A model generated the notes under the pieces. That model was not told the origin of the DNA. It did no database searches and worked only from the letters and a program-made list of their open reading frames with translations. DNA of 64,000 bases from Candidatus Dojkabacteria bacterium (GTDB lineage Bacteria > Patescibacteriota > Dojkabacteria > B142 > OLB20), in NCBI GenBank assembly GCA_046753765.1, contig JBHHUN010000003.1, positions 21,001 through 85,000 of the forward strand, in the 5' to 3' direction. Below are positions 9,704-24,668 of the stretch, piece by piece. Numbering within the stretch: the first letter of the stretch is position 1; every line of letters begins with the position of its first letter. The position numbers were made by a program, and so were the translations under genes.

Positions 9704-11757
9704 TTATGAAAGCAGCGCCGAAAAATCTTGTGCTAGTGATCTTGGTGCTTCTCCTGGTGCCGGTCGGAGTATTGATTCCGAAAGATGTTGGTGCAATATC
9801 TAACGGGAATGATGAGATATATTTAGCCACACCACTAAACAAAGCTCTTGTTGAAGGCAATGAGCAGTTTAGTTGGTTTATGAAGGATCCGGATCAAACT
9901 AAGATTCCCTTCCAGGTAGACTTGTTCAGAAAGAACTGTGGAGCTAACGGTTTATTCTTTGGAGTCGTTGTTACAGGTGAAAAAACATCAGTCAGTGGTG
10001 GAAAGATTTATAATGGGACGTGGGATACAGATGGGCCCATATTGGATAAATCCAAAATCAATGATGGTAACTACTGTATGCGTATCTGTGCCGTGTTCAA
10101 GCGTAACCCCAGTAATTTCTATGCACTTTGTGACAAGCACTCAGTTAAAGTTGTTAATACCAATCGTTCACCTGAAATAACAAGCAATCCTAAGGGGCTC
10201 AATCTGACCCAGGGAGATGACTTTAAATATGATGTACAGGCTAAGGATCCCGATGGTGATAAGCTGACATACACATTTCAGAAAAAGCCTAAATTCCTGA
10301 AGATCAACAACGACAGTGGTGTCATCACCTCCAAAGGTGCGATCAGTAACGTGGGCAGTTTCGAAGTTAAGGTGAAAGTTGCAGATGGTAAGGGGGGGAC
10401 GGACTTTCAGGTCTTTACTATTAATGTGACAGCGCAGGAGACAGATTTTAGTGTTAGTTTTACAAGTCCCGATTCGGAGAGTGTTTTTTCAAAGGATGAG
10501 AACCTGGTTAGTTGGAACGTCTCCGGAGATATCGACGTCGAGGAGATTACACTGTTTTATTCAACTGATACTGAGGAGTGGGCAGAAATCTCGTCAATCG
10601 AAGGCAACCCTGAGCAGTTTAGTTGGGATGTGACAGGTATGACTTCCGGAGAATACTATCTGAGACTCAGGTTAAAAGATACTAGCGGTAATCTGTTTGA
10701 AGTTGTAAGTGATAAGTTTACTGTGGCAACTGATGACGATGATGGTGGTGGTGAGGAAGTGCCATTGATAACTCCAAAGGATCCGGCGGAAGATGGTGTG
10801 ACTACCGAAACCACCCCAAAGATCTCGTTTAGTGCTGCACCATCGGAAGGGGCGGAGATTGATTCACAGTCAGTCACAGTCAAGCTTAATGATACTGAAT
10901 TGGAGGATTGTAGCCTTTCTCAAGGAGTTGTTGAGTGTATCGTTGAGACAGACCTTGAACTTGGTAGGCATAAGTTGTTTGTAGAGGTGACTGACAGTTT
11001 GGGGCAGAGTGCAGTTAAGGAGTGGTTCTTCGAAGTAGTGACCCCCGTGACTCCCACTCCCCAACCCGGACTGGGTGAGAATATAACCTTGTTTGGCAAC
11101 AGGATTCCAATAGAAACGTTCGGACTTGCAATTGGCATTTTGTGCGTTGGGTTGTTGCTACTTCTGATACCGTGGTTGTTATATCTGTTCATCATACGAA
11201 GGCGCCAGGAACAAAGCTATGATTACTATCCCGACGAGTCGGGCACAGGATACGAAGTTGGTGATTACTCTCCTACCCCTGATTATTCAACTTCGACGGG
11301 TGACATCGAGATATTTACACCCGGATCAGTTGGTGCTCCTCCAGCTGACCCCCTGTCACCTGAACCACTGGAACCAGAGCAGCCTACTCCGCCTGTAGAG
11401 CCTGCCACAGATATCCAGCAGCCAGTACAGGAAGACGCTGCCTACGAACCAACAGTTGGGGACCAAACACTTGGTGAGGAACAGTTTGTCACTCCTGAGC
11501 CGTATTCCCCTAGAGAAACAGCGTCAGGAGGAGCCAAAGGAGCAGAGCCTGCTCATATGCCCAGTATATACTCCGATGAGGAGGTTCCTGACTGGTTGAA
11601 GACCACAGATGAGAACGCGAGCGCTCCTGTATCACCTTCTGGGGAAGATTTTGAGAGTAGGCCAGGTGTTGTTGGAAGTGATGATACCTCAAAACCCTAT
11701 CAGGATTATGGATTGGCATCGAGGAATGAAGATAACCCGGATAAACAGGGTGAATAA
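9700..11757 (+). CDS. Surface protein with a cadherin-like/putative Ig (He_PIG-type) domain, single TM helix and a Pro/acidic-rich cytoplasmic tail
   Basis: Signal peptide, then the motif 'PEITSNPKGLNLTQGDDFKYDVQAKDPDGDKLTYTF...GSFEVKVKVADGKGGTDFQVFTINV', typical of dystroglycan-type cadherin-like/putative Ig domains. TM helix LAIGILCVGLLLLLIPWLLYLFII followed by RRRQ and a Pro/Glu/Asp-rich tail. GTG start overlaps the upstream stop codon. Confidence 0.6.
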   Translation: MIMKAAPKNLVLVILVLLLVPVGVLIPKDVGAISNGNDEIYLATPLNKALVEGNEQFSWFMKDPDQTKIPFQVDLFRKNCGANGLFFGVVVTGEKTSVSGGKIYNGTWDTDGPILDKSKINDGNYCMRICAVFKRNPSNFYALCDKHSVKVVNTNRSPEITSNPKGLNLTQGDDFKYDVQAKDPDGDKLTYTFQKKPKFLKINNDSGVITSKGAISNVGSFEVKVKVADGKGGTDFQVFTINVTAQETDFSVSFTSPDSESVFSKDENLVSWNVSGDIDVEEITLFYSTDTEEWAEISSIEGNPEQFSWDVTGMTSGEYYLRLRLKDTSGNLFEVVSDKFTVATDDDDGGGEEVPLITPKDPAEDGVTTETTPKISFSAAPSEGAEIDSQSVTVKLNDTELEDCSLSQGVVECIVETDLELGRHKLFVEVTDSLGQSAVKEWFFEVVTPVTPTPQPGLGENITLFGNRIPIETFGLAIGILCVGLLLLLIPWLLYLFIIRRRQEQSYDYYPDESGTGYEVGDYSPTPDYSTSTGDIEIFTPGSVGAPPADPLSPEPLEPEQPTPPVEPATDIQQPVQEDAAYEPTVGDQTLGEEQFVTPEPYSPRETASGGAKGAEPAHMPSIYSDEEVPDWLKTTDENASAPVSPSGEDFESRPGVVGSDDTSKPYQDYGLASRNEDNPDKQGE

Positions 11758-11763
11758 GAGGAG

Positions 11764-14700
11764 TTAAAGGTTGGCGATCCCCGAATTATTAAGATAGCTG
11801 CCCTCGTAACCTCTACCAGTTGCAATATTAACGTCTCCGTTAGCGATCTTGGCAAGTGTTCGAAGCTTACTTGCAAGTTTTGGGCCTACATATTTGTAGT
11901 AACTTACCTCGCCCGGCGACAGCGAAACTATCAAGACCTCTGAATCGAAATAGTAGTCCTTTTCACCGATTACGAGTATTAATTCACGTTCGTTTAGCTT
12001 CTCCATGAAGTCTGGGCCAAGATCGTTCAACACATTTAAAATAGAAGTTGTCTGTTGTCTGGTCCATATACTTTCGAATCCTATTAGTCGTACACCGTAG
12101 TGCGATAGCTCCAGTTGTTGATACTCAGTACTGGCCTCAGGGACGTCGTTTGATATCGGAACGTTATTCATTGCTTGCTGAGAGCTAGTGCTCATCGCCC
12201 CAATAAGCATGATCAGCGACATCATAAACGGCACAACATTACTTACATTAATGCCCCTGAAAGCCATATTGGCCAGATTTAGGAAGGCTCCGGCGAGGTT
12301 GAACAGCATCATTGATGCGTTCATTAAGGCATTTATTGCTCCGTTGAGAGGGACATCAATCAGATAGTGCCCGAGGGCTTGTCCAAGGAGCTGTCCTAAG
12401 AAAGTTCCAAATCCCGTCCCGAGAGCGATGAAAAAAGGTGTTGCGAGGGCTCCTAGACCCCCCGTAATTGTCGTAGCTATTGCTGACGTACTGGCAGCTA
12501 TAGCTGTGCCTACGGCGCTACCGATAGCAATTCCAGCTACACCTCCTACTGCGGCACCAACGCCTGCACCAACCATTGCTCCGATACCGGTTCCAAGATT
12601 GAAAGCTGCACCCACAGCAAATCCTAATATGCTGCCAACTGTAAACCCAACTGTCGCCGGGTTGACTCTTGGGATAAGCCCACTTGCAAACCCTCTTAGT
12701 GTTTGCGCACTATAACGCCCGAAATTACCGAAGCTTTGAAACGCCTCCCCAAAGGTGAGTAGTCCTTCTGTACTTGCTGTAGGGATCCCCATTGCTCCAC
12801 CTGTGAGTGCATACGCTGATCTACTTAGTGCATTTGTTGTTTGTAAGTACCCCACCGCTCCAAGGTAGTTTCCGCCAACGGTGATAACATTGAGAAACCC
12901 CGTTCCCTGATAAAATGTGAAGCTGTCTCGAAGATATCTGTCGAGATCGCCGTCGTATTCATCCTTCAAGATCTGTGCCTGTTGGCCTATCCACGAACCA
13001 CCGATCATTCTGTTCATAAATCGTGTACCCGGGATCCGTGCAAGTTTGGCAAACATTGAACTATCCCCCCTAAGACTTTGTGCGACGCCCTTCCCTATTA
13101 ATGAGTCCCAGATGAACCTGGCGCCCGCACCGGCCGCAAACCCCGCACCGGCCGCAAGCAGTGGGTTGACGCCGGTAATAAGCCCGACTGTGGCTGCAAT
13201 GGATGCTACAGTTAAGCCGGTATTGATTGATCTAAAGAGCCTTTGAGAATTAGAATAGATATTTCGCATACCTTTCACCTGATCCTGAAGCTCAGATGTG
13301 AGGTCTGCTTGTGCCTTCCATGTTCCATTTGGCATTCTCCATTTTCTCAGGTTGTATGATTGCATATTTTGTATTGCAGCCAAGGCTGTACCTGTTGCGC
13401 CACCAAGTACCATTGCCGTTGGGTTCAATCCAAATATAGCAGCTGTACCAACACTGGTCAGTAGCCCTTTGGGGAGTGCACGTGCTGTTGATGAGGTTAC
13501 CCTGTATCCCGTTCGAAGCACCCTACCGGTTGCTGTAGCCACTCTGACTGTACCTCTTGCCACTGCCTTAACACCTCTTCCTGTGGCTCTTGCCCCTCTG
13601 ACGCTCAATCGTGTCAATCTGGCATCTCTGACCGATCTATATAAATTACGGCCACCCTCCTGCACCCTTTGAGTTGCCCGTCCTGCTATTTCAGCTGCTT
13701 GCTCACTTTTTTGGGATGCGTACTCTGCGGTTCTGGAGTTAACGACCCGCTGACCTACCCTTGAGCTGACAAATCTGGCTCTAGCTGCCCTACTGATAGC
13801 TGTGCCCGTCTTACCTATTGCTTTGACAACCCCCTTGGCTGTATCGAATAGCCCCTTGAAGAACATGCGAAGCACCAAACCTCGAGCAGCCTTTTCATTC
13901 TCTTCCTTCTTCTTTTTTTTATATGCCCTGCGTGTCAAGATTATCCGACCCTTTAGCTGTCGACGATAGAACTTCTCGGACTGCTTTTGCAGCCTCTTTG
14001 ATCTGTCCTTAACTCTTTCGGGTACAAATCCTGAAACATTCGCACCTGTCCATCGCGCGACATCTTTCCCTTTATTCACCACCGGTCTTCCAAAAAACAC
14101 TGCCGGCTTTGCAACAAAGTTTCTTGCTGTAAATTTTGCTGCCCCAATAGCGAAATTCTTGGTTCCCTCTTTTACATTCTCTTTAAACTTCTTTCTTTTT
14201 TGTCGAAACCTTTCACGCAGTCCAGGTTTTTTTGCATCATAACGGAAGTCTTCCATCTGGAAAATGTTGTACCACTTACCTCTTAAGAATGCGTCTTCCA
14301 TCTGCCGGGTTCTTTTGTTCATTGACTCGCTCCAATGGGGGTTGTCCCAGGCATAAAACTGTGCTTTCGTTTCTTGACCAAGCCATCGTGCTCCACGTTT
14401 CAACTTGTCTGCACGAGATTCTTCCCTCTGAACTTCTACTTCAGGGGCAGGAACAGGTTCAGAAGGAGGGGGCAATGTAGCTTCTGTCTCTCCTGTGGGT
14501 TTTGGTGTAAATTCCCCAGCAGGTTGTTCGTCTTTGGGTAATCCAGAAGGTAGCTGTGCGGCTTCTGTGGGCGTGACAGAGCCCATTTGAATTTCTGACT
14601 TTACCCCGTTGAGATACTGAATGATAGCTGTTGCTGCTGGATGCTTGCTAATATCGGGGTGATATTTCTTTGCGAGGTCTCTGTAGGAGGCCTGGATATC

Positions 14701-15000
14701 TTCTCCCCGGCCTGCAATGTCGTAGAGTCCGTCTATCTCCGCTTTGACCTCAGGAGGAACCCCGGTTGCATCCGGTCGTGGTTGCTCAACAGCTTCTGCC
14801 TTTTGTTCGGGAATGGCAATTGCCGATGAGGCTCTCACCTGTTGCAGTACTTTATCAGCTTCCCGTAGTATTTCCTCGACAGACTTCCTTTGTTCCCGGT
14901 TTTCACGCAGGAACTTCTCTACAGCTTCAATTAGAGCAGCAGTATCACTCCCCAGCTCTGAGATCCTATCTTGTATTCGTTGCATTGGTTCAACTGCCAT
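11764..15000 (-). CDS. Giant (1078 aa) J-domain-containing membrane protein: N-terminal coiled coil, DnaJ-type J domain, Arg/Lys-rich region, Gly/Ala-rich glycine-zipper hydrophobic region and a C-terminal globular domain. Last gene of the six-gene operon
   Basis: Residues ~88-135, 'LYDIAGRGEDIQASYRDLAKKYHPDISKHPAATAIIQYLNGV', match the J-domain consensus, including the invariant HPD (nt 14653-14661, minus strand). Residues ~180-470 are very Arg/Lys-rich. Residues ~500-880 contain many GxxxG/AxxxA hydrophobic stretches (e.g. VGAGVGAAVGGVAGIAIGSAVGTAIAA). No signal peptide. Confidence 0.65.
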   Translation of the reverse strand: MAVEPMQRIQDRISELGSDTAALIEAVEKFLRENREQRKSVEEILREADKVLQQVRASSAIAIPEQKAEAVEQPRPDATGVPPEVKAEIDGLYDIAGRGEDIQASYRDLAKKYHPDISKHPAATAIIQYLNGVKSEIQMGSVTPTEAAQLPSGLPKDEQPAGEFTPKPTGETEATLPPPSEPVPAPEVEVQREESRADKLKRGARWLGQETKAQFYAWDNPHWSESMNKRTRQMEDAFLRGKWYNIFQMEDFRYDAKKPGLRERFRQKRKKFKENVKEGTKNFAIGAAKFTARNFVAKPAVFFGRPVVNKGKDVARWTGANVSGFVPERVKDRSKRLQKQSEKFYRRQLKGRIILTRRAYKKKKKEENEKAARGLVLRMFFKGLFDTAKGVVKAIGKTGTAISRAARARFVSSRVGQRVVNSRTAEYASQKSEQAAEIAGRATQRVQEGGRNLYRSVRDARLTRLSVRGARATGRGVKAVARGTVRVATATGRVLRTGYRVTSSTARALPKGLLTSVGTAAIFGLNPTAMVLGGATGTALAAIQNMQSYNLRKWRMPNGTWKAQADLTSELQDQVKGMRNIYSNSQRLFRSINTGLTVASIAATVGLITGVNPLLAAGAGFAAGAGARFIWDSLIGKGVAQSLRGDSSMFAKLARIPGTRFMNRMIGGSWIGQQAQILKDEYDGDLDRYLRDSFTFYQGTGFLNVITVGGNYLGAVGYLQTTNALSRSAYALTGGAMGIPTASTEGLLTFGEAFQSFGNFGRYSAQTLRGFASGLIPRVNPATVGFTVGSILGFAVGAAFNLGTGIGAMVGAGVGAAVGGVAGIAIGSAVGTAIAASTSAIATTITGGLGALATPFFIALGTGFGTFLGQLLGQALGHYLIDVPLNGAINALMNASMMLFNLAGAFLNLANMAFRGINVSNVVPFMMSLIMLIGAMSTSSQQAMNNVPISNDVPEASTEYQQLELSHYGVRLIGFESIWTRQQTTSILNVLNDLGPDFMEKLNERELILVIGEKDYYFDSEVLIVSLSPGEVSYYKYVGPKLASKLRTLAKIANGDVNIATGRGYEGSYLNNSGIANL

Positions 15001-15001
15001 A

Positions 15002-16051
15002 TTACCCCAACATTGATAGATGATTTTGAATAGTCCGTATATCCCTCCTGATGTTTTCTAATTCCTGGGCGTATTTCTTGATCTGGTCCAGCTGGTTTTG
15101 CATATCTGTTGCCTTGGCCTGCAACTGGGTGGTAGCTTGAACAAGCGTTGTCTGTGATGCTGGATCATTCTGCCCGGTAAGAGACTGTGCCTGTTGTTCC
15201 AGGTTTTCTACCTCTACCTTTAACTTGTCAATATAGTCGCTGGTTTGATCTATATGTTTTGCCAAAGCATCAAACTCCTTCATCCGCCTTTTCAACCTTT
15301 TTCTTAGTCCCTTCCTTTGCTTATCTAAGAAATACCTCTGATTTAGATTTTTGAAGAGTGCGTTGATTTGCTCTGTGTCAATCTCGACGTCCTTTTGATG
15401 TTCCTGTTGCTGTGCCTTTAGAGTGCCATAAATCCCCGAAAGAATAGTCAGTGCTTCCCTCTGGGCAGGAGTCATTGGTACGAGCGTATTGGGTTGGTTG
15501 GTGTATGGGCGTACTGCTAATGCTAACAGCCTTTCATACTCCTCAATGTTTGAGATACTGGTGTATTGTTGTAGTTTTGCCTCTTTTTGATAAAGACCGG
15601 GTACGAGAGAGGGCTGTTTCAATGTCAAGGTTCCTATCTGTTGCTTCAACATCGCCTCATGTTTTTTGACCTCCTCTTTAAACTCGTCTTTAACAAATGC
15701 CCAGTCCTTAAGAAGACTCATTATCTGCGAAGCAGGGGTAACTGCACTCTTAAGCGCCATGTGGTCTATCCACTGGCTCAGCGTCATCACTGCAATTTGT
15801 AGATCGCGGGGTTGTACTCCACCAGCGAAGGCCAAAGTACCAAAATCAAATTCTTGTGTTGCTGGTGCATTTCGTGCGGATAGTCCTTTCATGACATGAT
15901 CCATTGTTCGCTCGTACAAACTAACTTTCTTTGCATAATCTGGTATACCCTCTGTTTTCCTCTCCCCGCTTACCGATTGCCATGTACTTTTAAGATCAAT
16001 CAGGTCGTTAAGCGAAACTGCAGTTATGGCACCTTTGTTGTTTGTTTGCAT
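15002..16051 (-). CDS. Hypothetical coiled-coil protein (operon gene 5)
   Basis: 349 aa, Gln/Glu/Lys-rich with heptad-like segments (…QLQAKATDMQNQLDQIKKYAQELENIRRDIRTIQN…). No TM helix. Start abuts the downstream gene (15002/15000) and its 3' end overlaps the upstream gene's start at 16051. Confidence 0.55.
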   Translation of the reverse strand: MQTNNKGAITAVSLNDLIDLKSTWQSVSGERKTEGIPDYAKKVSLYERTMDHVMKGLSARNAPATQEFDFGTLAFAGGVQPRDLQIAVMTLSQWIDHMALKSAVTPASQIMSLLKDWAFVKDEFKEEVKKHEAMLKQQIGTLTLKQPSLVPGLYQKEAKLQQYTSISNIEEYERLLALAVRPYTNQPNTLVPMTPAQREALTILSGIYGTLKAQQQEHQKDVEIDTEQINALFKNLNQRYFLDKQRKGLRKRLKRRMKEFDALAKHIDQTSDYIDKLKVEVENLEQQAQSLTGQNDPASQTTLVQATTQLQAKATDMQNQLDQIKKYAQELENIRRDIRTIQNHLSMLG

Positions 16052-17232
16052 CAGTTCTCTTCTGCCAGATAGTCATTTAAAGTAAATTTGGGGTTTTCAA
16101 GTCCGTTTGTAACAGCGTTGAATATTTCGTATTTTGCCTCATGCGTGAAATCTACGTTATATGTTTCGAATGGCTCGGGGAGTACGTTCCCGTCGTCCAT
16201 TACAAGATACAAGTCAATCAGAAAGTTGAACTTTCGCTCATCTTTGTCAAACTGTTCAGGCGGTCTGAACCGGAGCTGATAGAGATTGACGGGAGTAAAC
16301 AGTCCGGAGTTGATATAGTAAAGCAGTAGCTCTTTGTAGTCTTCAAGAAGAACTTTACGTGTTTCGGGGTACAGTGACTTCATTGCTCGCAGTCCATCTG
16401 TAATAACTTTAACAACTTGATCTTCAAGATCTTCGAGCTGTGGCGGGAATTTACTTTCAGTGTTATTAGTTATCTTTCTGTAATACGCATTGAGGTTTGC
16501 CTTAGCCTGTCCTGGACTCATACCTCTGGCAAGATAGGAGTATAGTCTTGGTGTGAAGTACATATAGCAGGTTTCGGCTACTGTTTCGTTTAGAAGACGC
16601 AATTCGTCCACGTAGAGTAATGGTACCATTCCGTACACAGTGATATCATCCAGGTCATCGATCATCTGATCGCGAATACCAGTAAACTCGGTAAGTGCCG
16701 AGAGGTATGATTTCATTATATTTTCCCTTTTCTCGCGCTCGCTAGTTGCTTGAAAATCAAGGACCCCAAAATCGTTGATGACAAATGCATCTGGAATGGC
16801 AAAAGTTATTGTGGATGGTAGAAATTTTTGATCCTTCGGCACGTCCATTGACTTTATGATACTGCGTTCAAGTTTTGTTGGTACACGTACCAGCTGGTAC
16901 TCAGCAAATTCAAGCCTTGCTTCAAGATACCGCATTATGTAGAGATCATGCATTGCTTCAAGGAAGATTTCTGGTGTTTTTTTGCCTGTTTTGTCCAGTT
17001 TAAGCTCATAAAGACTAACGAGCTTTTCGATTATCTCTATGTATCTGAGCATCAGCCGCTCTGTCTGGGGAGACGTTTGCTCTATTTTAATATCTAGCGA
17101 CTCTTCTTTTGAAAACAGGAAGATGTAATCGAGGATCTCGGGTCCCAGAACAGAGATAAGCTGCTTTTCTATATCACTGAGATCAGTAACAAGTGTCGAG
17201 ATAGAATTGGTGTTTTGTGTTTCTGTAGCCAT
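16051..17232 (-). CDS. Hypothetical cytoplasmic protein (operon gene 4)
   Basis: 393 aa with no TM helix, no Walker motifs and no recognisable family. It lies 9 nt downstream of the membrane-protein gene. Confidence 0.5.
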   Translation of the reverse strand: MATETQNTNSISTLVTDLSDIEKQLISVLGPEILDYIFLFSKEESLDIKIEQTSPQTERLMLRYIEIIEKLVSLYELKLDKTGKKTPEIFLEAMHDLYIMRYLEARLEFAEYQLVRVPTKLERSIIKSMDVPKDQKFLPSTITFAIPDAFVINDFGVLDFQATSEREKRENIMKSYLSALTEFTGIRDQMIDDLDDITVYGMVPLLYVDELRLLNETVAETCYMYFTPRLYSYLARGMSPGQAKANLNAYYRKITNNTESKFPPQLEDLEDQVVKVITDGLRAMKSLYPETRKVLLEDYKELLLYYINSGLFTPVNLYQLRFRPPEQFDKDERKFNFLIDLYLVMDDGNVLPEPFETYNVDFTHEAKYEIFNAVTNGLENPKFTLNDYLAEEN

Positions 17233-17241
17233 CTTTCATCT

Positions 17242-18771
17242 CTATCCCTGATTTGATGTCCCCGGCGCATAACTAGTAAGTCTTTTTTTGGTCTCATTCA
17301 ACAACCCGCCAAGAGCCGTTGTTCTCTGACTAACTACCTGGAAGAAGATATTACCAGTTGGTACACCCATATTGTTTTTAATTAGATCCGGAATGCTTGG
17401 TGAGAACAGGAAGACCGAGTAAACAACAATAATTTTATAGATGCCACCACCGAACTGTGATGCTTCGCTACCGTACCCGAGCAGTGGGGGTGCCCATTCA
17501 ATTGCACCAGCATCCCGGAATGCACCGGTCAAACCGCTGCTGTTACCCACAATTATGAGAAATAGAAATACACCATATAGAACGATAAACACAAGACTGG
17601 CAGCCAGAAGTGTTTTGAAGTAATTGCCCACTATAGTACCGGTTCTACCAGGTATGGCTGCAGTCAGGAATATAAACGGCGAGAATATGGGCATTGTGGT
17701 TAGAATTATGTAGTTATTAAGCAGTGCGAGAAACAGCTTAAAAGCTGCGCCCAGGGCAACAAGTCCAAGCAGTAGCTTAAGTAGATCTCCGGCGAGGCCA
17801 CCTCCCAAGGCTGAGAAAAGCCCCGTGAGAAATGTCTCCTCCACACCGCCTATGAGAGGAAACCACCCGATCTCACATGTGTCAAGTTCGCCCTCAGTAG
17901 GAATAAGTGGATCAGGGTCACAGATGTGGATTGCAGACGAGCTCCAGATATTCATAAAGCCAAGCTGATAATCGTCCGGCTGAAGTTCATTAATCTTGGG
18001 TCCGGAGTAGCCAGGGGCCCCCTGAACGCCACCTTGAAAGATATCGTAGCCCGGAGCTCCAGGGGCTGTGACCATTACACTTTGGACAAAATTAGTGCCG
18101 ATCGTAACAAGATCTACAAATAAAGCAGATATCGGATAGCTTAGGGTTACCAATAGCAGGGCGATCAACACCGACGGTAGTGAGTTAGCGACATTCACTA
18201 TAGTTTGCCCACCAAGATTTTGTCGGAACAGCACAAGGAAAGCTATCACGATGAGAATGACTATGAAGAAACCATAGGCGATATTTCTTGTCCACTGCCA
18301 GAAACCAAGGATCGGGCGAAGAAGTTCAAAACCTAACCCAGGGAAGTACGTTGATGGATTCGAGTCATTTTGGGCGAAAACAGTAATAGATTCGTAGCCA
18401 AGAATTTGGTTGTACTCGTTCTGTGCCCAGACAATCATACTGGCTGGCGGGTTATCATACATACCATCGCTCAGGGCTGCTATCTGTAGGACAGCCCCTT
18501 TTTGAGACACATCGTCTTTACCTTCAGCTGAGCCTGTTGCCGTCAGATGATTCCATCCACCTGCAAACCATGCAGAAAGACTGCCAAGGTCGTTCCTCCC
18601 TTGTGGAGCAACGTAAGTATGAATGGCCGATCGAGGTTCAGCCACAGCTTGAGTCATCGGCACATTAGACAGCAGAAAAAATGCAATCAACCCTACGACC
18701 ATTAGGGTCTTAAATACCGATCTCTGCTTCCAGCCCTTCTTAATCAGGCTCTTTACCGTGGGACCCTTCAT
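17242..18771 (-). CDS. Polytopic membrane protein with VirB6/TrbL-like topology: signal peptide, ~125-aa extracytoplasmic domain, ~6 TM helices (operon gene 3)
   Basis: Signal peptide (…LLSNVPMTQAVA|EP), a hydrophilic N-domain, then hydrophobic helices (IAYGFFIVILIVIAFLVLF; LPSVLIALLLVTLSYPISALFVDLV; LLKLLLGLVALGAAFKLFLALL; IILTTMPIFSPFIFLTAAIP; LLAASLVFIVLYGVFLFLIIVG; IYKIIVVYSVFLFS) with a Cys-containing loop. The call rests on topology only, not sequence similarity. Confidence 0.55.
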   Translation of the reverse strand: MKGPTVKSLIKKGWKQRSVFKTLMVVGLIAFFLLSNVPMTQAVAEPRSAIHTYVAPQGRNDLGSLSAWFAGGWNHLTATGSAEGKDDVSQKGAVLQIAALSDGMYDNPPASMIVWAQNEYNQILGYESITVFAQNDSNPSTYFPGLGFELLRPILGFWQWTRNIAYGFFIVILIVIAFLVLFRQNLGGQTIVNVANSLPSVLIALLLVTLSYPISALFVDLVTIGTNFVQSVMVTAPGAPGYDIFQGGVQGAPGYSGPKINELQPDDYQLGFMNIWSSSAIHICDPDPLIPTEGELDTCEIGWFPLIGGVEETFLTGLFSALGGGLAGDLLKLLLGLVALGAAFKLFLALLNNYIILTTMPIFSPFIFLTAAIPGRTGTIVGNYFKTLLAASLVFIVLYGVFLFLIIVGNSSGLTGAFRDAGAIEWAPPLLGYGSEASQFGGGIYKIIVVYSVFLFSPSIPDLIKNNMGVPTGNIFFQVVSQRTTALGGLLNETKKRLTSYAPGTSNQG

Positions 18772-18851
18772 CTATGCATTCTAATGTAACGAATAAACGG
18801 TAGTTTCTTCCACCAGTATAGGAAGTTATGGAAATGATTTCAACAAGATAA

Positions 18852-19328
18852 TCACTCGGGGAGTTTTTTTTCGCGTTTGAATTTGAACTTCCTCAGTTCG
18901 GGGTACTGTTTTTTCAGTTGTCCTATCATACGGTAGTCATCGACAAACCAGTCACTTATCTGGATGAGTGCATCGTCATCCATTCTGGCAAAGAAATCGG
19001 CTGCCATTTCGTTTTCAAACTTCATTAATTTTTTTTCAATAATGTCGTTTAACTTCGGGTGTTTCCCCCTGATTTTAAACATCATTTTATAGAACTTCTC
19101 GAGATTCTTTGCCTGTTCCTTTTGGTTCAGTGTTGTGTCGCTGAGCTTATCAAGCTCCTCATCGTATTCCTTTAACTTGTTCTCAGAAAGGAACAAGATG
19201 GTTTGCTGTATTTCAACCTGCATCTTCATTTCAAGGTACTCATGTCTCATCTGCATAATGACGTAGTCATCATATCCAAACTGATCCTGAACTAGTTTTG
19301 CAAATCTCTCGTCAAACAAAAAAAACAT
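18852..19328 (-). CDS. Small hypothetical cytoplasmic protein (operon gene 2)
   Basis: 158 aa, charged and helical, no TM helix. It lies 16 nt downstream of the giant gene. Confidence 0.5.
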   Translation of the reverse strand: MFFLFDERFAKLVQDQFGYDDYVIMQMRHEYLEMKMQVEIQQTILFLSENKLKEYDEELDKLSDTTLNQKEQAKNLEKFYKMMFKIRGKHPKLNDIIEKKLMKFENEMAADFFARMDDDALIQISDWFVDDYRMIGQLKKQYPELRKFKFKREKKLPE

Positions 19329-19344
19329 GTATATTCAATAACAA

Positions 19345-22300
19345 CTAAGGCAGAGCAATAAACTGTTTCCCAAGCTCCCAGAAGTCTTTAGAGGTTCTCT
19401 GAGTGAGATTTTCGCTGTATTTAACGACATCGTTGTATGCTGGCATAGTTCCCTCCCACTGGGCATCAATTGCCCCCATATGGGTGAACAACATAGCTAT
19501 ATTGTCGCTTGATAGAGCCTGTCCGGCCCTTGCCTGCTCAAACACACTTCGCATGCCCTGTAGTTTACCAAGTGTCTCGTCGGCAATCTTGGACCTTGCC
19601 CCCCAGCCATCTCTGGATCGGTCAAGAAAGCGGGAAAACATCCAATCCCAGGCAAAGATTCCGACAAGCGGTCCACCGAGACTTGGAAGCATGCTTGCAA
19701 ACTGTAAACCCAGAAATGGCACGCTAACGTGAGCGAACCCAAGAATCACGGAGGTGTAGATCGTCCACCTCAGGATCTTATTCACTTTTGCAAGCCAACC
19801 CCAAAGCTTCTTTTTGTACTTGGCAACATTTGCAAATTCGTCCATCTGCTGCAACCGCTCCTGATACCTAAAAAATAGATCAAGGGCAAGCTTTTTATTT
19901 GCTATCTCGCCATCTATATTGCCGTCTATTGTGCCCTTCTCCTTAGTTTTTATCAGGTTGCCGTCATCATCTCTTGCGAGTTGTCCAGTATCCGTTAACT
20001 CAAATCCAAATAGATGTGCAAGTTCTGCGGCCGAGACTCCAGGTACTGGAGGGTAGTCTATGAAGAATCCTTGAGGTGTTTTCTTTTTGATTGATGCGGT
20101 TTTTGAGTATTCACCCTGAAAGTACCTTATCATTCTGCCACGGGGGCCGAACGTTTCGCGTCTAATGACTACAACTGACTTACCTTTGTCGTCTGTTACA
20201 GTCGTGTAACCGTCTCGCTCAAGAGATGCCAGAGCTGCTCTATCGAGTCGTGGCAGCTTTATGTCTTGATTTTTACTGTCTTTTGGGTACGGTGAGAGAT
20301 TATCTAACCACTCCTGTGCGGGGACCGGGCTTCCTTGATCGTCTCGAAAAGGTTTTCCCTCATCATCCCTCCGGTAGGCTATATCGAATCCGTAAACACC
20401 GACCTCCATAATCCTCTTTGCTTTAGCTTTGAACATATGTCGTATGAAGTCTTTGACAATCTCGGTGTCCACGTACAATGCTTCATTCCCATGCCCAATT
20501 CGTACATCAATATTGGGCCAGGTCCCCTTCCCGTCTGGGCTTCCCTCCGGGACTGTTGATTCTGGCCCATGGCCATATTCCAGTCTTTTCATCCTGTCGA
20601 GTAGTTCGTAAAGCGTGAAGTGGTCTCCAGGAATGTTGTTATCAGAAAACGTTGACTTGTCTTCACGCATCATTGCATCAGCTATCAGAGCGAATGCATC
20701 AGAGATGCTCTTTTTCTCATCGGCAATATCGTATTTTGTTGCGTCGCGTTCTTTTGGATCTATCATTTCGATAATATCTCCCTTCAGACTGTCAGACATC
20801 TGACCTTTCCGAAGCCTGGATTCTCCATCAAAGGCATCACTTACACCTTCTCCTAAGAGGGTGTCACCTGTCAGACTTGTTGTAATACTCGCTGGAAACC
20901 CTCCCAATTGTGCAAGTACAGGGTTTTGTCGGTGTTCATCAATCTCTTTAAACCCCTGCCAACCAGCAACAAATCTGCCCGACGTAACGTCTTGTTCAAA
21001 CCCACCGATAGCTTCGAGAATTATCAAAGTTTCACTTGAGCTTCTGCCGGACTGTTGAAGTTCGTAAGCTATTGATTGTGAGTGTTGTTCGACTGTGTCT
21101 CGTGCGTGCGGTGAGGTTAGTTTAGCTCTAACATCTTGATGCGGTGCAATAAACAGTCGTTTTCGTAGGTCTTTCAAGATTGGAAGTGTTCCCAACCCTC
21201 CGGGTAGACCTTTGCCTATTGGATCCGCTCCTAATTGCTCTGTAAAGAATATTCCTCCGACTTTGCTCCCCAGACGTTTTCCTAGTACTTTTTTAAATGC
21301 TCCCATTCCATATGCACCAAAAGCTTCATTCATTTTGTAAGGAGTTATGCCCAAAATATCCAGAGGGTTCCAAAACCCCTTAAGGAAGAACAGGGCGCCC
21401 CCCCTCGTGTCTTCGTGAGGGATAGACTTTGTTCCGATCATTGAGTGCCAAAGATTCACCTTGTTTCTCTGGAGTGTCTTTCCCGGATTGAGGTCGCTAC
21501 GCAGGTATTTCACCATGTTTGCTGAGTAGTGTCCCTGGTACCTGGTCATTATGTTGCCATTTTTATCTATTAGGATTTTCAGGTGCTGCGACTGGTCACC
21601 AATGTTGTCTTCGCCTATCATTTCGCGAATCTGCTCGTTGAAACCCTCTTCCAAAGATCGCCTTCGTGTTTCGTAATCGTTCTTTGACACATCTCCGTCT
21701 TCAAATTGGCTATCTAGGTTCTTGAGTGCTGTGTTGAAGTCTTCGCGTATGCTAAAAAGATCTTCTGCAGATCCTGAGTAGGTTGTCTCTCCGCTTTGTG
21801 GGTCAATAGAATCTACGGTGGGCATATTGATACCTTCGAACAGCTCAGGGTATCTTCTTTTTAGTCTCGTTAAGAATCCAGGCAGGTGATCGACGGTTCT
21901 GGTGCCGTTTTGTTCCAACAGAATGGCCATTGAAACTCTCGCTTTTTTGTATTTTGTAAACAACTCCAGGTATGTTTCCTCATCTTCTTCACCGAGTTCA
22001 ACGCGAGTTTTTAGTTCGAGGAGTTTGTCATGTATGCCATTTATGGCTTTGACGGTCATTCCGGCTACTATTTCATGCTCTGTAATTACACCTTCCGCGC
22101 CTAGTTTCTCGGGGTTGATTCCTATCTCCGCCATAGTAAGGCGTTCAGTAATTGGTCTCATATAAAGTGCTGAGCCAATCTCTTCAAGGTGTGGTGGTTC
22201 GGAGAGAGCCTCGTGCAGACGCTTAGCTCTTTCGGCTCGTCTGCTGCCCCCCCTATCGGTGATATGCTCTGAAAACAGCCGAACATCCTGTTCTAGCCTC

Positions 22301-24522
22301 TGTGTGTGGTCGGTGTCGGCCATATAGTCGGGTGTTACCAAATACCTCCTCGCTTCAGCAAGGAAATCCTGAAGCTGGGGGTGAGATTTCATCTGCTCAG
22401 AAGCCACCCTGTTTAGCTCGTCAAGTGCCTTCAGTTTCGCTGCCTTTTCTGCATCGGTTTTTGCAGTCTCAGGAATATTAAGTTCAGACCTGTGAATTGA
22501 TCTGAAATAGTCCAGGACCAACCTGCGACTTAAGATTTTGGCTCTTGCTTCAGCCTGAGCGGCTTCCAATGCCTGCTTCACCTGATGCCCAAGCTCGTGC
22601 ATGGTAGAGCTGTCGCTAGCTATTATCAGTCTGTCTACGTTACCAATGACTGCACCCGCGGGAACTGCTTCTCCGGGGCCAAACTCTTTGCCGTAAATCA
22701 CTGCGAACAGTTGTTGAATCTGGCTCTGTTCCATAATGAGCGCTGGTCCAGCTGCTGTGATCTCTACTCTGACACTGGGATTGTCTGCTAACTCCGAGAT
22801 AACTCCGGTAATCTGTTCTTTGTTTATTTCTACAGGGTTACCGTCTTCGTCAGTTGCTCCAGCAAGTTCACTGAACATCTGAGTCAGTGCAAATTCCTTT
22901 TGAGCCTGAAGCCCCCTCTGCTCAGCTTCGTATCTTTCGGTTGGACTTAGACTATCGAGGTGTTCGTTTCCCTCCTTCACGAGCGATGCGATTGTCTGAT
23001 CCCGATTTTCGCCAAAAACACCCAGGTAGTAGTGCCGCATGTGGTCAGCCATTTTGTTGTTCCTTTCGACAAGTGTGTCAACCAGGGTGTCTATCTCTAG
23101 ATGTGCTCTTTGCAGATACGGCAGTTTTTCTCCATCACTTCTCAACTGGGCCATCTCTTTTTCGTTGAAATATTGTCCGTATGCCTTTAGGATCCTTTCT
23201 CTGATTGCGTTTCTCGTCGAATCTCCATGACTGTACTCACCACCTTTGGTGGGACTGACACCTTCAATTATCCTTGTGCCAATCTCAACTGCGTTGACTG
23301 GGTCAAGGAACATGTCGGCAACAAACTCATTCATTACTATCTCATTTGCGGCAGCTATCTTACCTGACGCAGATACCGGTCTGCCTCCAGCCAGAGCCTC
23401 AGTGGCTGCTCCGGTTAGCTCTTCTACAGCTCTTTGTCTGACCTTTGCGAGCTCACGGATAAGACTTTTCTGGTCCATCGCCTCTATGTTACTCCCCCCC
23501 GGGCTGAGCACCTGCTCCACTTCGTCTTTGATATCTGCCTCTTTTTCCGCCAAGGTTCTAGCTTCTGCTGGTTTTTCTCTTGCTTCAGGCATTTTTGCTC
23601 GGACGGTTTCGCCTACAGTTCCCACTTCCACTTTCTCGGGTGGCCCAGGTCGCCCGGTGGTATCGAGCAGATCTTCAGGTTGCGCTTCTGAAACTATTTC
23701 CAGCTCTTCGGTGGCTACCTCTGTTTCTGTTGCTTCTACGGCGGTTGCCTTAGCCGGCGGGTCACCAATAAGTTCATGTATCTCTGCTTCAGTGAACCCC
23801 TTGCTAAGTAAGTACTGCTTTCTTTTCGAATGCTCGGCTCTAGTCATGAAAACCAGTCTGAGCCTGGCCCAACGCTTAACTAAGGCACTCTTTATTTGGC
23901 TGAAAAAATTGATCTTCTTCTTTTTGCGAACCTCGTTTTCATCCTGCTCCAACCTGTCTCTTACTTTGTCAGCCTCTGCAAGTGCATATTTTGCCTGTTC
24001 GTCTACTTCGGGATCACTAATCTCTGATTGGACTTCCGCAAGTTCCTTTGGATCAGGCTCTTCTTTTGCTTCGGGTAGCGGAGTTTGCTCTGTTTCAACT
24101 GTGATATTCGCGAGCTCGTGTCTTGCTACTTCACGCAGCACTTCCTCTTCATGTGCCTGAAGCTCACCGCTTTCTCTTAATTGCCTGAGGATTAATTCGA
24201 CCTCAAGTGGCGACTTTGCACTTCTGATCTTTGTTTTTATTTCGGCTGAGATTTTTGGAAGAACAAATGCGGCTGCACTAAGTAGTCTTTTATCGACCTG
24301 CGCTGGGTTTATCCACCTAAGCTGAGGTGATTCATGAACGCTGCTACTTGCAGCAGGAGTTAGTGGTTCATGTCCATTCCCTGAGATATCCGGAGCCTCT
24401 GCAGCCGCCTCGACTGTTGCCGCATCAGCATCTTTTTGAGCTTTTGGCAAGCGAGGTTCCTCCCCGGTTCCAGAAGGATGGGTTCTTTCTTTTGGTGGTG
24501 TTGGTGCAAGTCCTATTGCCAT
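19345..24522 (-). CDS. Giant (1725 aa) hypothetical protein with acidic/coiled-coil N-terminal region, an HELGH motif and a C-terminal TM hairpin. First gene of the six-gene operon
   Basis: Uninterrupted 5.2-kb ORF with no signal peptide. Charged coiled-coil-like N-terminal 300 aa. HExxH motif 'MHELGHQ' at nt 22585-22599 (aa 642-646). Two hydrophobic helices near the C-terminus (WTIYTSVILGFAHVSVPFLGLQFASML...PLVGIFAWDWMF). No recognisable family. Confidence 0.6.
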   Translation of the reverse strand: MAIGLAPTPPKERTHPSGTGEEPRLPKAQKDADAATVEAAAEAPDISGNGHEPLTPAASSSVHESPQLRWINPAQVDKRLLSAAAFVLPKISAEIKTKIRSAKSPLEVELILRQLRESGELQAHEEEVLREVARHELANITVETEQTPLPEAKEEPDPKELAEVQSEISDPEVDEQAKYALAEADKVRDRLEQDENEVRKKKKINFFSQIKSALVKRWARLRLVFMTRAEHSKRKQYLLSKGFTEAEIHELIGDPPAKATAVEATETEVATEELEIVSEAQPEDLLDTTGRPGPPEKVEVGTVGETVRAKMPEAREKPAEARTLAEKEADIKDEVEQVLSPGGSNIEAMDQKSLIRELAKVRQRAVEELTGAATEALAGGRPVSASGKIAAANEIVMNEFVADMFLDPVNAVEIGTRIIEGVSPTKGGEYSHGDSTRNAIRERILKAYGQYFNEKEMAQLRSDGEKLPYLQRAHLEIDTLVDTLVERNNKMADHMRHYYLGVFGENRDQTIASLVKEGNEHLDSLSPTERYEAEQRGLQAQKEFALTQMFSELAGATDEDGNPVEINKEQITGVISELADNPSVRVEITAAGPALIMEQSQIQQLFAVIYGKEFGPGEAVPAGAVIGNVDRLIIASDSSTMHELGHQVKQALEAAQAEARAKILSRRLVLDYFRSIHRSELNIPETAKTDAEKAAKLKALDELNRVASEQMKSHPQLQDFLAEARRYLVTPDYMADTDHTQRLEQDVRLFSEHITDRGGSRRAERAKRLHEALSEPPHLEEIGSALYMRPITERLTMAEIGINPEKLGAEGVITEHEIVAGMTVKAINGIHDKLLELKTRVELGEEDEETYLELFTKYKKARVSMAILLEQNGTRTVDHLPGFLTRLKRRYPELFEGINMPTVDSIDPQSGETTYSGSAEDLFSIREDFNTALKNLDSQFEDGDVSKNDYETRRRSLEEGFNEQIREMIGEDNIGDQSQHLKILIDKNGNIMTRYQGHYSANMVKYLRSDLNPGKTLQRNKVNLWHSMIGTKSIPHEDTRGGALFFLKGFWNPLDILGITPYKMNEAFGAYGMGAFKKVLGKRLGSKVGGIFFTEQLGADPIGKGLPGGLGTLPILKDLRKRLFIAPHQDVRAKLTSPHARDTVEQHSQSIAYELQQSGRSSSETLIILEAIGGFEQDVTSGRFVAGWQGFKEIDEHRQNPVLAQLGGFPASITTSLTGDTLLGEGVSDAFDGESRLRKGQMSDSLKGDIIEMIDPKERDATKYDIADEKKSISDAFALIADAMMREDKSTFSDNNIPGDHFTLYELLDRMKRLEYGHGPESTVPEGSPDGKGTWPNIDVRIGHGNEALYVDTEIVKDFIRHMFKAKAKRIMEVGVYGFDIAYRRDDEGKPFRDDQGSPVPAQEWLDNLSPYPKDSKNQDIKLPRLDRAALASLERDGYTTVTDDKGKSVVVIRRETFGPRGRMIRYFQGEYSKTASIKKKTPQGFFIDYPPVPGVSAAELAHLFGFELTDTGQLARDDDGNLIKTKEKGTIDGNIDGEIANKKLALDLFFRYQERLQQMDEFANVAKYKKKLWGWLAKVNKILRWTIYTSVILGFAHVSVPFLGLQFASMLPSLGGPLVGIFAWDWMFSRFLDRSRDGWGARSKIADETLGKLQGMRSVFEQARAGQALSSDNIAMLFTHMGAIDAQWEGTMPAYNDVVKYSENLTQRTSKDFWELGKQFIALP

Positions 24523-24668
24523 ATCAAGACTAATTATATCATCCGAACTCTCCTATCAGCATATAATCTTTACTGCTGTTTTACAATCGATTCGGTACAT
24601 GTCCGTCTTGTTTTTTGTTTCCATTCGTGTAAACTATTACTAATAATACTTGTTTAGTTCAAGAAAAT
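24523..24668. promoter_or_regulatory. Divergent promoter region between the giant-protein operon (−) and the P/A/T-rich tail-anchored protein gene (+)
   Basis: 146-bp AT-rich intergenic region. On the minus-strand sense a TATAAT hexamer sits 13-18 nt upstream of the operon's ATG (…GATGATATAATTAGTCTTGATATATG), suggesting a short or leaderless 5' UTR. Confidence 0.35.

Follow-up and report, generated by a model that had tools for sequence, protein, structure and literature searches.

Six closely packed genes on the minus strand

The window, a 64-kb stretch of DNA from a Candidatus Dojkabacteria bacterium (CPR/Patescibacteria), holds six minus-strand genes, here called A to F, whose ORFs were all recovered in the ORF listing where the first-pass annotation had placed them. 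Gene A (19345..24522) encodes a protein of 1725 aa with no signal peptide; it is followed by gene B (18852..19328) for a soluble, charged, helical protein of 158 aa, gene C (17242..18771) for a polytopic membrane protein of 509 aa, gene D (16051..17232) for a soluble protein of 393 aa, gene E (15002..16051) for a protein of 349 aa with a C-terminal coiled coil, and gene F (11764..15000) for a membrane protein of 1078 aa. The measured spacings agree with the tight packing described earlier: 16 nt separate A from B, 80 nt B from C, and 9 nt C from D, the end of D shares 1 nt with the start of E (cTGATGc), and a single nucleotide lies between E and F (TAAtATG). We infer co-transcription of the six genes from this packing only. 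The 146 bp upstream of A (24523..24668) separate it from a divergently transcribed gene, U, and by position are presumed to form the promoter region of both. A promoter scan found no sigma-70-like site on the minus strand of this interval, its sole match being a weak one on the plus strand (24618-24647), and counts of consensus promoters and terminators in the region did not exceed the shuffled expectation. Rfam and tRNA scans of the window returned nothing.

Hydropathy agrees with the membrane features proposed for A (a C-terminal anchor) and C (an N-terminal signal/anchor followed by about six TM segments); it predicts several Gly/Ala-rich hydrophobic segments in F and no TM segment in B, D, or E. 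Searches of Pfam, NCBIfam, PHROGs, and PADLOC with all six proteins gave nothing above any curated threshold, the sub-threshold matches being coiled-coil noise, to which those of E are confined, and a DnaJ match of F discussed below. The six proteins have no conserved Walker A motif. PDB sequence-profile searches with A, C, D, F, and the HExxH region of A yielded nothing significant, and D has no PDB or Pfam match. Beyond this lineage, no relatives of A, B, D, E, or F were detected, so for these five of the six the earlier claim of no recognizable homology holds.

The housekeeping genes pyrG (4032-5690) and obg (25702-26649), said to flank the operon, are both present by Pfam, but neither adjoins it. 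Its direct neighbors are an operon for an Ig-domain protein, a solute-binding protein (SBP), and a DUF3048 protein on one side and, on the other, gene U (24669..25622, plus strand), which encodes a tail-anchored, Pro/Thr/Ala-rich, low-complexity protein of 317 aa that contains a basic patch and, at its C-terminus, a strongly hydrophobic TM segment. The Ig-domain surface protein (9700..11757, plus strand; Pfam He_PIG, Big_13, and Big_7) is encoded convergently on F.

Conservation of the operon across the Dojkabacteria

The gene order A-B-C-D-E-F is kept, together with the flanks, in at least 11 related genomes or contigs, and more distant genomes have five-gene variants of the order A-B-C-D-F (loci L018, L019, L021, and L071 are without E). 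Since synteny throughout the class, at 35-55% protein identity, covers the operon as well as its two flanks, it is a lineage-core locus and not the chromosomal accessory island that it had been taken for. Order, sizes, and reading frames are moreover preserved in independent NCBI, ENA, JGI, and Logan assemblies at 15-55% protein identity, which implies that all six genes are under purifying selection. Conservation is highest in C and D (D, second to C, at 30-50% identity) and lowest in E (14-26%), while B has syntenic orthologues of 140-158 aa at 19-39% identity. Gene U is syntenic in all Dojkabacteria loci, with a match to the U HMM in L012, and is for this reason a possible seventh member.

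These data bear on two trivial readings of the locus. One is that the six are unconnected hypothetical genes or over-called ORFs that share no function, and that the giant ORFs are artefacts; the very poor conservation of E and the division of A into two ORFs in WS6 OLB20 would fit this. That division is seen in WS6 OLB20 only, however, and A and F keep lengths of 1618-1778 aa and 929-1104 aa, respectively, in the independent assemblies, which rules out the giant ORFs as assembly or annotation artefacts. Given that synteny and length conservation, we regard this reading as scarcely credible.

The other is that the genes are the remnant or cargo of a mobile element, such as a conjugative element or a prophage tail/tape-measure module, lodged between housekeeping genes. 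The region does contain a VirB6-like gene (see below) and giant Gly-rich proteins, and the GC content over parts of A and F reaches 0.49-0.50 against about 0.44. This GC shift, however, matches the Ala/Gly/Arg-rich composition of the proteins, the operon has the same location and the same flanks throughout the class, and no integrase, relaxase, tRNA, or repeat boundary is present. Apart from a weak match of F to be described below, PHROGs gave nothing above noise for the six proteins, and tblastn found no match for A or F in 50,697 phage records or for C in 72,556 plasmid records. A mobile origin is thus largely refuted, and we consider it very improbable.

Protein C, a VirB6/DotA-like membrane protein

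Protein C has an N-terminal signal/anchor, a region of about 110 aa predicted to be extracytoplasmic, and about six long hydrophobic helices, a hydropathy pattern (N-terminal segment plus about six TM helices) that is kept in seven orthologues. A loop of about 90 aa (aa 236-325) holds two conserved cysteines, C284 and C299, which are invariant among Dojkabacteria. The AlphaFold2 (AF2) model of C (pLDDT 77.8) places helices at residues 148-182, 194-235, 326-370, 377-409, 443-467, and 475-501. When this model was searched with Foldseek, the five best matches were all TrwI, albeit at E values of 0.15-0.9, and TrwI accounts for the best four to five matches of two independent models. UniProt names the OLB20 and OLB21 orthologues of C TrbL/VirB6. 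At the sequence level, by contrast, the TrbL/VirB6 model PF04610 gave no Pfam match for C, four homologues, or 59 family members, and a C profile run against the PDB reached TrwI at a non-significant E value of 1.8. The C family itself, which is unannotated and has no Pfam model, comprises at least 3,984 cluster representatives (50% identity) at E<=1e-3.

The identity of this family is also indicated by its gene context in another lineage, the Microgenomatia. In Daviesbacteria, a C homologue lies between six T4SS_pilin genes on one side and genes for PrgI, a TraC-like protein, and VirB4 on the other. At least one type IV secretion system (T4SS) marker was found in 36 of 43 Microgenomatia-type metagenomic loci of the C family; pilin arrays lie upstream of C in 26 of the 30 loci that have upstream sequence, and PrgI, TraC-like, and VirB4 genes were found in 14 of the 16 that extend at least 7 kb downstream. 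The resulting order, a pilin array, then C, then PrgI/VirB3, the TraC-like gene, and VirB4, puts the C family in the VirB6 position.

This gene context, the structural matches, and the UniProt names of the two orthologues bear out the suggestion that the 509-aa protein is VirB6/TrbL-like, C being related, though with very strong divergence, to VirB6/DotA, the channel subunit of type IV secretion machines. The accompanying statement that no known secretion-system component can be recognized at the locus does not stand, as the C family takes the place of VirB6 in the T4SS of Patescibacteria. VirB6 has been described as "scarce" in Microgenomatia, "suggesting extreme sequence divergence" (PMC12102498), and the C family is plausibly this "missing" subunit. 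Forms of C of about 850 aa carry a C-terminal extension, which we considered as a possible C-D fusion; in hhalign comparisons it showed no relation to A, B, D, E, F, U, the Ig protein, or a large unknown protein beside C in Microgenomatia (termed "big"), and we reject such a fusion.

TrwI of plasmid R388, a TrbL/VirB6 protein (PF04610) that forms the stalk/channel subunit of T4ASS machines, resembles C in being a polytopic inner-membrane protein with long hydrophobic helices, and the C family occupies the same place in the Microgenomatia loci, beside VirB3, VirB4, and pilins. C nevertheless lacks significant sequence similarity to TrwI, is about 170 aa longer than its 342-aa sequence, and differs in its N-terminal signal/anchor, its extracytoplasmic region, and its cysteine loop; in Dojkabacteria, moreover, the C gene is not near virB4, and no VirB5-like partner was recognized. 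The architecture common to DotA and VirB6 consists of a pair of N-terminal TM helices and five long hydrophobic ones; DotA has in addition a signal peptide ahead of the pair and a large extracytoplasmic domain with disulfides (10.1101/2025.06.23.660953). The layout predicted by the model of C is comparable to this architecture. DotA, which forms a protochannel with IcmX in the Legionella Dot/Icm T4BSS, shares with C a signal peptide, TM helices, an extracytoplasmic part, and long hydrophobic helices, but the two are only 8% identical, DotA has at least 857 residues and works in a diderm machine of 27 proteins, and no IcmX-like protein was found here.

The giant proteins A and F

The conservation profile of A divides the protein into an acidic, poorly conserved N-terminal portion of about 1000 aa, a better conserved stretch from aa 1000 to 1400, and a C-terminal membrane anchor. 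The anchor, a hydrophobic hairpin at about aa 1575-1640 (19603..19800, minus strand), was located by a Kyte-Doolittle scan, and its position is kept in all orthologues, as is the hydrophobic segment of aa 1588-1606. Following a hydrophobic strand, A carries an HELGH sequence (aa 642-646; 22585..22599, minus strand) that conforms to HExxH and may represent a zincin-type metal-binding or catalytic motif. Its two histidines and its glutamate are invariant in 9 of 11 giant proteins found at the A position, in an alignment of these nine in which they are only 15-24% identical, and the glutamate, E643, reaches a conservation of at least 90% in the alignment of 11 sequences. Pfam searches with 11 A orthologues gave no shared family and no peptidase-family match; a PDB profile search with the HExxH region gave no match, nor did searches of the PDB and PHROGs with A.

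F has a variable N-terminus, a polybasic region (about aa 200-600, of which aa 301-600 have a net charge of +46), a Gly/Ala-rich multi-TM region (about aa 520-950), and a C-terminal domain of about 130 aa. Residues G610, G620, G624, G815, G850, G873, and D882 are invariant across 11 orthologues. Pfam searches with these 11 gave no shared family, and F had no match in the PDB.

The J domain ascribed to F is present as a J-like stretch with an HPD motif (aa 100-126; 14623..14703, minus strand), which PHROGs also detects at an E value of 0.003, but the Pfam DnaJ match covers just 27 residues and scores 22.2 bits, below the gathering threshold of 27.8. The stretch is specific to this genome: HPD is absent from all five close orthologues, and DnaJ matches 1 of 11 proteins at the F position. 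We thus reject recruitment of DnaK through a J domain, which had been proposed as part of the machine, as a feature of the system. J-domain membrane proteins of the Mycoplasma TopJ type share with the F of the window a KYHPD stretch and weak NCBIfam and Pfam J-domain matches, but these matches are sub-threshold and short and are not a family property of F.

Separation of the operon from other T4SS genes

No protein of the VirB4 type (AAA_10/DUF87/P-loop_TraG) is encoded in the 64-kb window or in 14 kb of contig extending from its two ends, where PrgI/VirB3, TraC-like, and pilin genes are missing as well, and a VirB4 HMM found no match in the window or in 24 related and adjoining loci. In 22 Dojkabacteria-type loci, the 10 kb around C were searched with T4SS HMMs built from the Microgenomatia loci, and no gene for VirB4, PrgI/VirB3, a TraC-like protein, or a pilin was revealed, with two exceptions, a pilin-like domain in L011 and a weak, unconfirmed match of the PrgI profile (17 bits, E 4e-4) to the ORF at the E position in L007. 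In hhalign comparisons with profiles of PrgI, the TraC-like protein, VirB4, the SLT protein, x253, and pilin, the probability did not exceed 2.7% for A to F and stayed below 12% for U and the Ig protein, with a maximum of 11.9% for U against pilin; against "big", it was at most 0.1% for all eight proteins. When homologues of VirB4 were searched for, the best 120 of 8,000 matches were all from Microgenomatia. In Table S1, at least two Dojkabacteria-class assemblies, out of five mentions of the class in the supplement, are scored VirB4-positive (PMC12102498).

This separation raises the possibility of an autonomous, undescribed machine, in which a VirB6-like channel would have been co-opted into a VirB4-independent complex with two giant proteins, forming a translocation or attachment device of its own that is energized or assembled in another way. 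In line with such a device, none of the Dojkabacteria-type loci examined has the operon joined to T4SS marker genes, and its five orphan partners form a conserved set, no member of which resembles any of the Microgenomatia T4SS-locus proteins compared; in other lineages, too, C is found away from VirB4 yet beside an Ig protein (L011, L022, and L024). Against it, the operon encodes no ATPase or motor, its only identifiable component belongs to a family that lies in T4SS loci in 36 of the 43 loci sampled from a sister lineage, and at least two assemblies of the class are scored as having VirB4. We consider such a machine possible but unlikely. In its most specific form, it would be a self-contained envelope machine of Dojkabacteria and close relatives only, in which a VirB6/DotA-type channel was captured by two giant proteins to give a new device for host contact or translocation, A possibly contributing a zincin-like HExxH site and F a polybasic arm, which might bind nucleic acids or lipids, together with a glycine-zipper, pore-like domain; we hold this version to be rather doubtful.

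Matches to the Ig HMM beside C were obtained in L011, L012, L018-L022, L024, L025, and L071, and this proximity to C-family genes, which extends to distant lineages, makes the Ig protein a candidate adhesin partner. One could go further and propose that the operon forms an envelope complex for surface attachment or nutrient capture with the Ig adhesin, the solute-binding protein, and the DUF3048 protein, C being a membrane platform and not a secretion channel. Indeed, the Ig protein, usually together with SBP_bac_1, is the most persistent neighbor of C outside Microgenomatia, and remains so in loci that lack A, B, D, E, and F (L011, L018-L025, and L071). The Ig, SBP, and DUF3048 genes, however, form a separate, convergent operon on the other strand, and none of the 43 Microgenomatia loci has an Ig HMM match near C. 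Adhesins are, furthermore, normal accessories of monoderm T4SSs (PMC12102498), so that adjacency to an Ig protein does not separate the hypotheses. We judge an attachment or nutrient-capture complex of this kind improbable.

Discussion

On balance, the operon is probably a relocated and elaborated, VirB6-centered membrane module of a Patescibacterial T4SS-like host-interaction machine. This reading is supported by the conservation of the operon, the presence of the C family in Microgenomatia T4SS loci, the fold matches to TrwI, the UniProt names, and the VirB4-positive assemblies. Counted against it are the lack of T4SS genes near the operon, the lack of a significant TrbL/VirB6 sequence match, and the dissimilarity of A, B, D, E, and F to the genes of the Microgenomatia T4SS loci. 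The first-pass annotation had seen in these genes a dedicated membrane machine, a view with which the conservation and close packing of the six genes agree, but instead of a wholly undescribed system the operon is most likely a variant module of a known kind.

A relocated module of this kind would amount to a membrane complex conserved across the Dojkabacteria and built around C. The gene of the C family would have left the locus of VirB4, VirB3, and the pilins in Dojkabacteria and entered an operon of its own with five lineage-specific partners. C would oligomerize in the cytoplasmic membrane as a translocation channel or platform, with both giant proteins as membrane partners: A tethered by its C-terminal hairpin and carrying the conserved HExxH, whose catalytic role is putative, and F with a polybasic half in the cytoplasm and, after it, a multi-pass domain of the glycine-zipper type. 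B, D, and E may act as soluble, helical or coiled-coil cytoplasmic adaptors or scaffolds that associate with this complex, and the energy would come from cooperation with a VirB4 whose gene lies elsewhere in the genome. In an epibiotic lifestyle, such a machine would be used for contact with the host and for transport.

Two comparisons place such a module among known systems. The T4SS of Patescibacteria, which is MPF-FATA-like and consists of VirB4, TrsD, PrgI/VirB3, and arrays of VirB2-like pilins, is essential for the epibiotic growth of Ca. Southlakia epibionticum (PMC12102498). The C family is a fixed member of its Microgenomatia loci, but the operon of the Dojkabacteria combines C with five orphan proteins, two of them giant, and has no local pilins, ATPase, or hydrolase.

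In the Rickettsiales, arrays of "extended VirB6" (RvhB6) paralogues are dispersed from virB4, and the giant size of these proteins is due to extensions of VirB6 itself. By analogy, VirB6-type genes detached from the ATPase locus, with very large proteins and in a host-dependent bacterium with a reduced genome, could be seen as a parallel to the present case, but the giant proteins of the Dojkabacteria operon are encoded by separate genes and have no similarity to VirB6. Dispersed T4SS islands in Rickettsia are also mentioned in work on the Patescibacterial system (10.1101/2025.01.22.634366, preprint of PMC12102498).

T4SS-like genes are among the few that have been shown to be essential for the Patescibacterial lifestyle, and, according to earlier reports, major classes have few or no recognizable copies of their channel subunit. 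Here, a very large unannotated family is assigned to the VirB6/DotA slot, and one class appears to have moved this VirB6-type subunit into a conserved operon whose other products are five orphan proteins, the two giants among them. Patescibacteria account for much of bacterial diversity and live attached to other microbes. The proteins of this operon are concrete, testable candidates for lineage-specific parts of a host-interaction machine, and the locus offers a natural experiment in how far a VirB6 module can uncouple from the T4SS ATPase.

Organization and conservation of the operon

Our ORF listing reproduced all six minus-strand ORFs of the first-pass annotation: A (19345-24522, 1725 aa), B (18852-19328, 158 aa), C (17242-18771, 509 aa), D (16051-17232, 393 aa), E (15002-16051, 349 aa), and F (11764-15000, 1078 aa). 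Intergenic gaps measure 16 nt (A-B), 80 nt (B-C), and 9 nt (C-D), with D and E overlapping by 1 base and 1 base lying between E and F. It is this packing that argues for co-transcription of A-F, because consensus promoter and terminator counts in the region do not exceed those of shuffled controls, and no sigma-70-like site was found on the minus strand of 24523-24668. A possible internal promoter sits inside the B-C gap, where TTGAAA-17-TATACT (10/12; 18815-18843, minus strand) is the region's strongest sigma-70-like match; overall promoter-like counts are not above shuffles. A Ser/Ala-rich antisense ORF of 304 aa within A (23246-24160, plus strand) is most likely a by-product of the composition of A and not a gene.

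A Kyte-Doolittle scan places a conserved C-terminal anchor in A, an N-terminal signal or anchor followed by ~6 TM helices in C, and several Gly/Ala-rich hydrophobic segments in F; hydrophobic segments are absent from B, D, and E. None of the six proteins matches Pfam, NCBIfam, PHROGs, or PADLOC above any curated threshold, and no conserved Walker A motif was found in them.

A hypothetical protein from a MAG assigned to Candidatus Dojkabacteria (WS6, CPR/Patescibacteria) matches C at 100% identity. In loci fetched around C homologues, synteny, on which the first-pass annotation had made its proposal depend, is kept: the order A-B-C-D-E-F recurs in WS6 OLB20, in a complete Dojkabacteria genome of 1.17 Mb, and in no fewer than eight other assemblies; more distant genomes carry five-gene variants without E (L018, L019, L021, L071). 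The flanks are likewise conserved: on one side the divergent gene for the tail-anchored, P/T-rich protein U, obg, cobalamin adenosyltransferase, and ADP-forming acetyl-CoA synthetase, and on the F side genes for an Ig-domain protein, SBP_bac_1, and DUF3048. Conserved order and flanks across Dojkabacteria assemblies refute the accessory island first proposed and rule out an assembly artefact. GC is modestly raised over A and F, matching the Ala/Gly/Arg-rich composition of both proteins. Identity of orthologues to the window proteins is highest for the slowly evolving C (35-55%) and D (30-50%), the remaining members being fast: A, 16-35%; B, 19-39%; E, 14-26%; and F, 23-28%.

Protein C as a probable VirB6/DotA-type subunit

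When 1.84 billion representatives were searched with a profile built from 13 homologues, at least 3,984 C-family proteins were recovered at E ≤ 1e-3, of which 2,164 reached E ≤ 1e-30; none of 59 sampled members (59/59) belongs to a Pfam family. A Daviesbacteria homologue, 31% identical to C, is flanked on one side by six T4SS_pilin genes and on the other by genes for PrgI (the VirB3 counterpart), a TraC-like protein, and a VirB4-type ATPase, all markers of type IV secretion systems (T4SSs). We sampled 43 metagenomic loci of the corresponding subfamily, which is of the type of the sister lineage Microgenomatia, using the Daviesbacteria locus to seed the jackhmmer profiles that labeled neighbors. 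Of the 43, 36 carry one or more T4SS markers, with pilin arrays immediately upstream of C in 26 of 30 loci having upstream sequence and PrgI/TraC-like/VirB4 genes in 14 of 16 with at least 7 kb downstream. Hence, the C family holds the VirB6 position in Microgenomatia T4SS loci. A survey of Patescibacterial T4SSs found VirB6 homologues scarce in Microgenomatia, "suggesting extreme sequence divergence" (PMC12102498).

UniProt names two C orthologues "TrbL/VirB6 plasmid conjugal transfer protein." C itself does not match PF04610 and thus falls outside VirB6 at the sequence level; its profile match to TrwI is not significant (E 1.8), and tblastn against plasmid records gave no match. A first AF2 model of C, built on 13 sequences, was of poor quality (pLDDT 56); with 150 family members as input, a second model improved to pLDDT 77.8, with pTM 0.75. 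For both, TrwI/VirB6 of R388 fills the top 4-5 ranks of a Foldseek search against the PDB, at E 0.15-0.9 and TM-scores of 0.31-0.46, none significant. DotA and VirB6 are structurally similar, sharing two N-terminal TM helices and five long hydrophobic helices, with DotA additionally having a signal peptide (10.1101/2025.06.23.660953). We consider it very probable that C is a VirB6/DotA-type subunit, and this part of the first-pass interpretation is supported.

About a third of the C-family representatives among the matches listed (49/161; P0059-P0160) are ~850-aa forms bearing an Arg-rich/beta-rich C-terminal extension of ~316 aa unrelated to A-F; in lineages with these forms (L011, L022, L024) the giant neighbors are absent and the Ig/SBP neighbors kept. 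In a VirB4 search, the best 120 of 8,000 matches were all from Microgenomatia; identity among these VirB4 proteins is 72-78%, against only ~40% for the adjoining VirB6-like proteins. Judged from these identities, the channel subunit appears to evolve far faster than the ATPase. In the Microgenomatia-type T4SS loci (L026-L068), an unannotated soluble protein of 650-1817 aa is always convergent on the VirB6-like gene, as usually is one of 320-480 aa. Neither matches Pfam, and the large one lacks similarity to A-F; both can be added to the dark components of this Patescibacterial T4SS locus.

The partner proteins

A, B, D, E, and F gave no match in PDB sequence-profile searches or phage records, and no profile-profile similarity to the Microgenomatia T4SS-locus proteins compared, including the large ones convergent on C. 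A carries an HExxH motif (HELGH, aa 642-646) just behind a hydrophobic strand. Of 11 giant proteins at the A position, nine keep the motif invariant despite identities of 15-24% elsewhere, which points to a putative zincin-like site. In two independent assemblies of WS6 OLB20, A is split into two overlapping ORFs of ~752-767 aa and 1025 aa (L003 4120-9452; L020 3808-9185). The break comes immediately after the HExxH, a position suggesting that A may be modular. The large protein encoded immediately downstream of C weakly matches Peptidase_M23 in two distant variants (E 0.017, L006 2027-4723; E 0.005, L025 10949-16078), a hint that in some lineages giant partners may act as cell-wall hydrolases.

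One half of F is polybasic, with a net charge of +46 across aa 301-600, and is followed by a Gly/Ala-rich multi-TM region containing seven invariant Gly/Asp positions. The J domain initially presented as a feature of the system does not hold up: around KYHPD (aa 112-116), the DnaJ match covers only 27 residues, and its 22.2 bits fall short of the gathering score (27.8); HPD occurs in 0 of 5 close F orthologues, and DnaJ matches 1 of 11 F-position proteins. The J-like stretch is at most a peculiarity of the window genome.

Neighboring genes and relation to T4SSs

U (24669-25622, plus strand) comprises ~280 aa of Pro/Thr/Ala-rich low complexity, a KKSKGGRRG patch, and, at its C terminus, a strongly hydrophobic TM helix. 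Its gene diverges from A and is syntenic in every Dojkabacteria locus, which makes U a possible member of the system. Convergent on F is a tightly packed plus-strand operon (7042-11757) encoding DUF3048 (441 aa), SBP_bac_1 (458 aa), and Ig-domain (685 aa) proteins. This Ig-adhesin/SBP operon still adjoins C-family genes in lineages without A-F. The Ig gene, usually with SBP, persists there even in distant lineages (L011, L018-L025, L071) that lack A, B, D, E, and F or have other genes in their place. This favors a functional tie between the two operons, which we nevertheless rate as improbable and which is compatible with either of the readings below.

Neither the window nor 14 kb of sequence past its ends contains VirB4, PrgI, TraC-like, or pilin genes, and none lies within 10 kb of C in any of 22 Dojkabacteria-type loci; at least two Dojkabacteria-class assemblies are scored VirB4-positive in part of a published dataset (PMC12102498). 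The operon is most likely a VirB6/DotA-type module detached from an ATPase locus and set in a class-conserved operon of orphan proteins. We lean toward its being a split, elaborated T4SS channel module, most of whose mechanistic steps we infer; the main rival, an autonomous VirB6-centered machine, seems unlikely. The C family may supply the VirB6 that is "missing" from two Patescibacterial classes. The operon further yields five concrete candidate partners without known relatives outside this lineage, of relevance to CPR and T4SS specialists alike.
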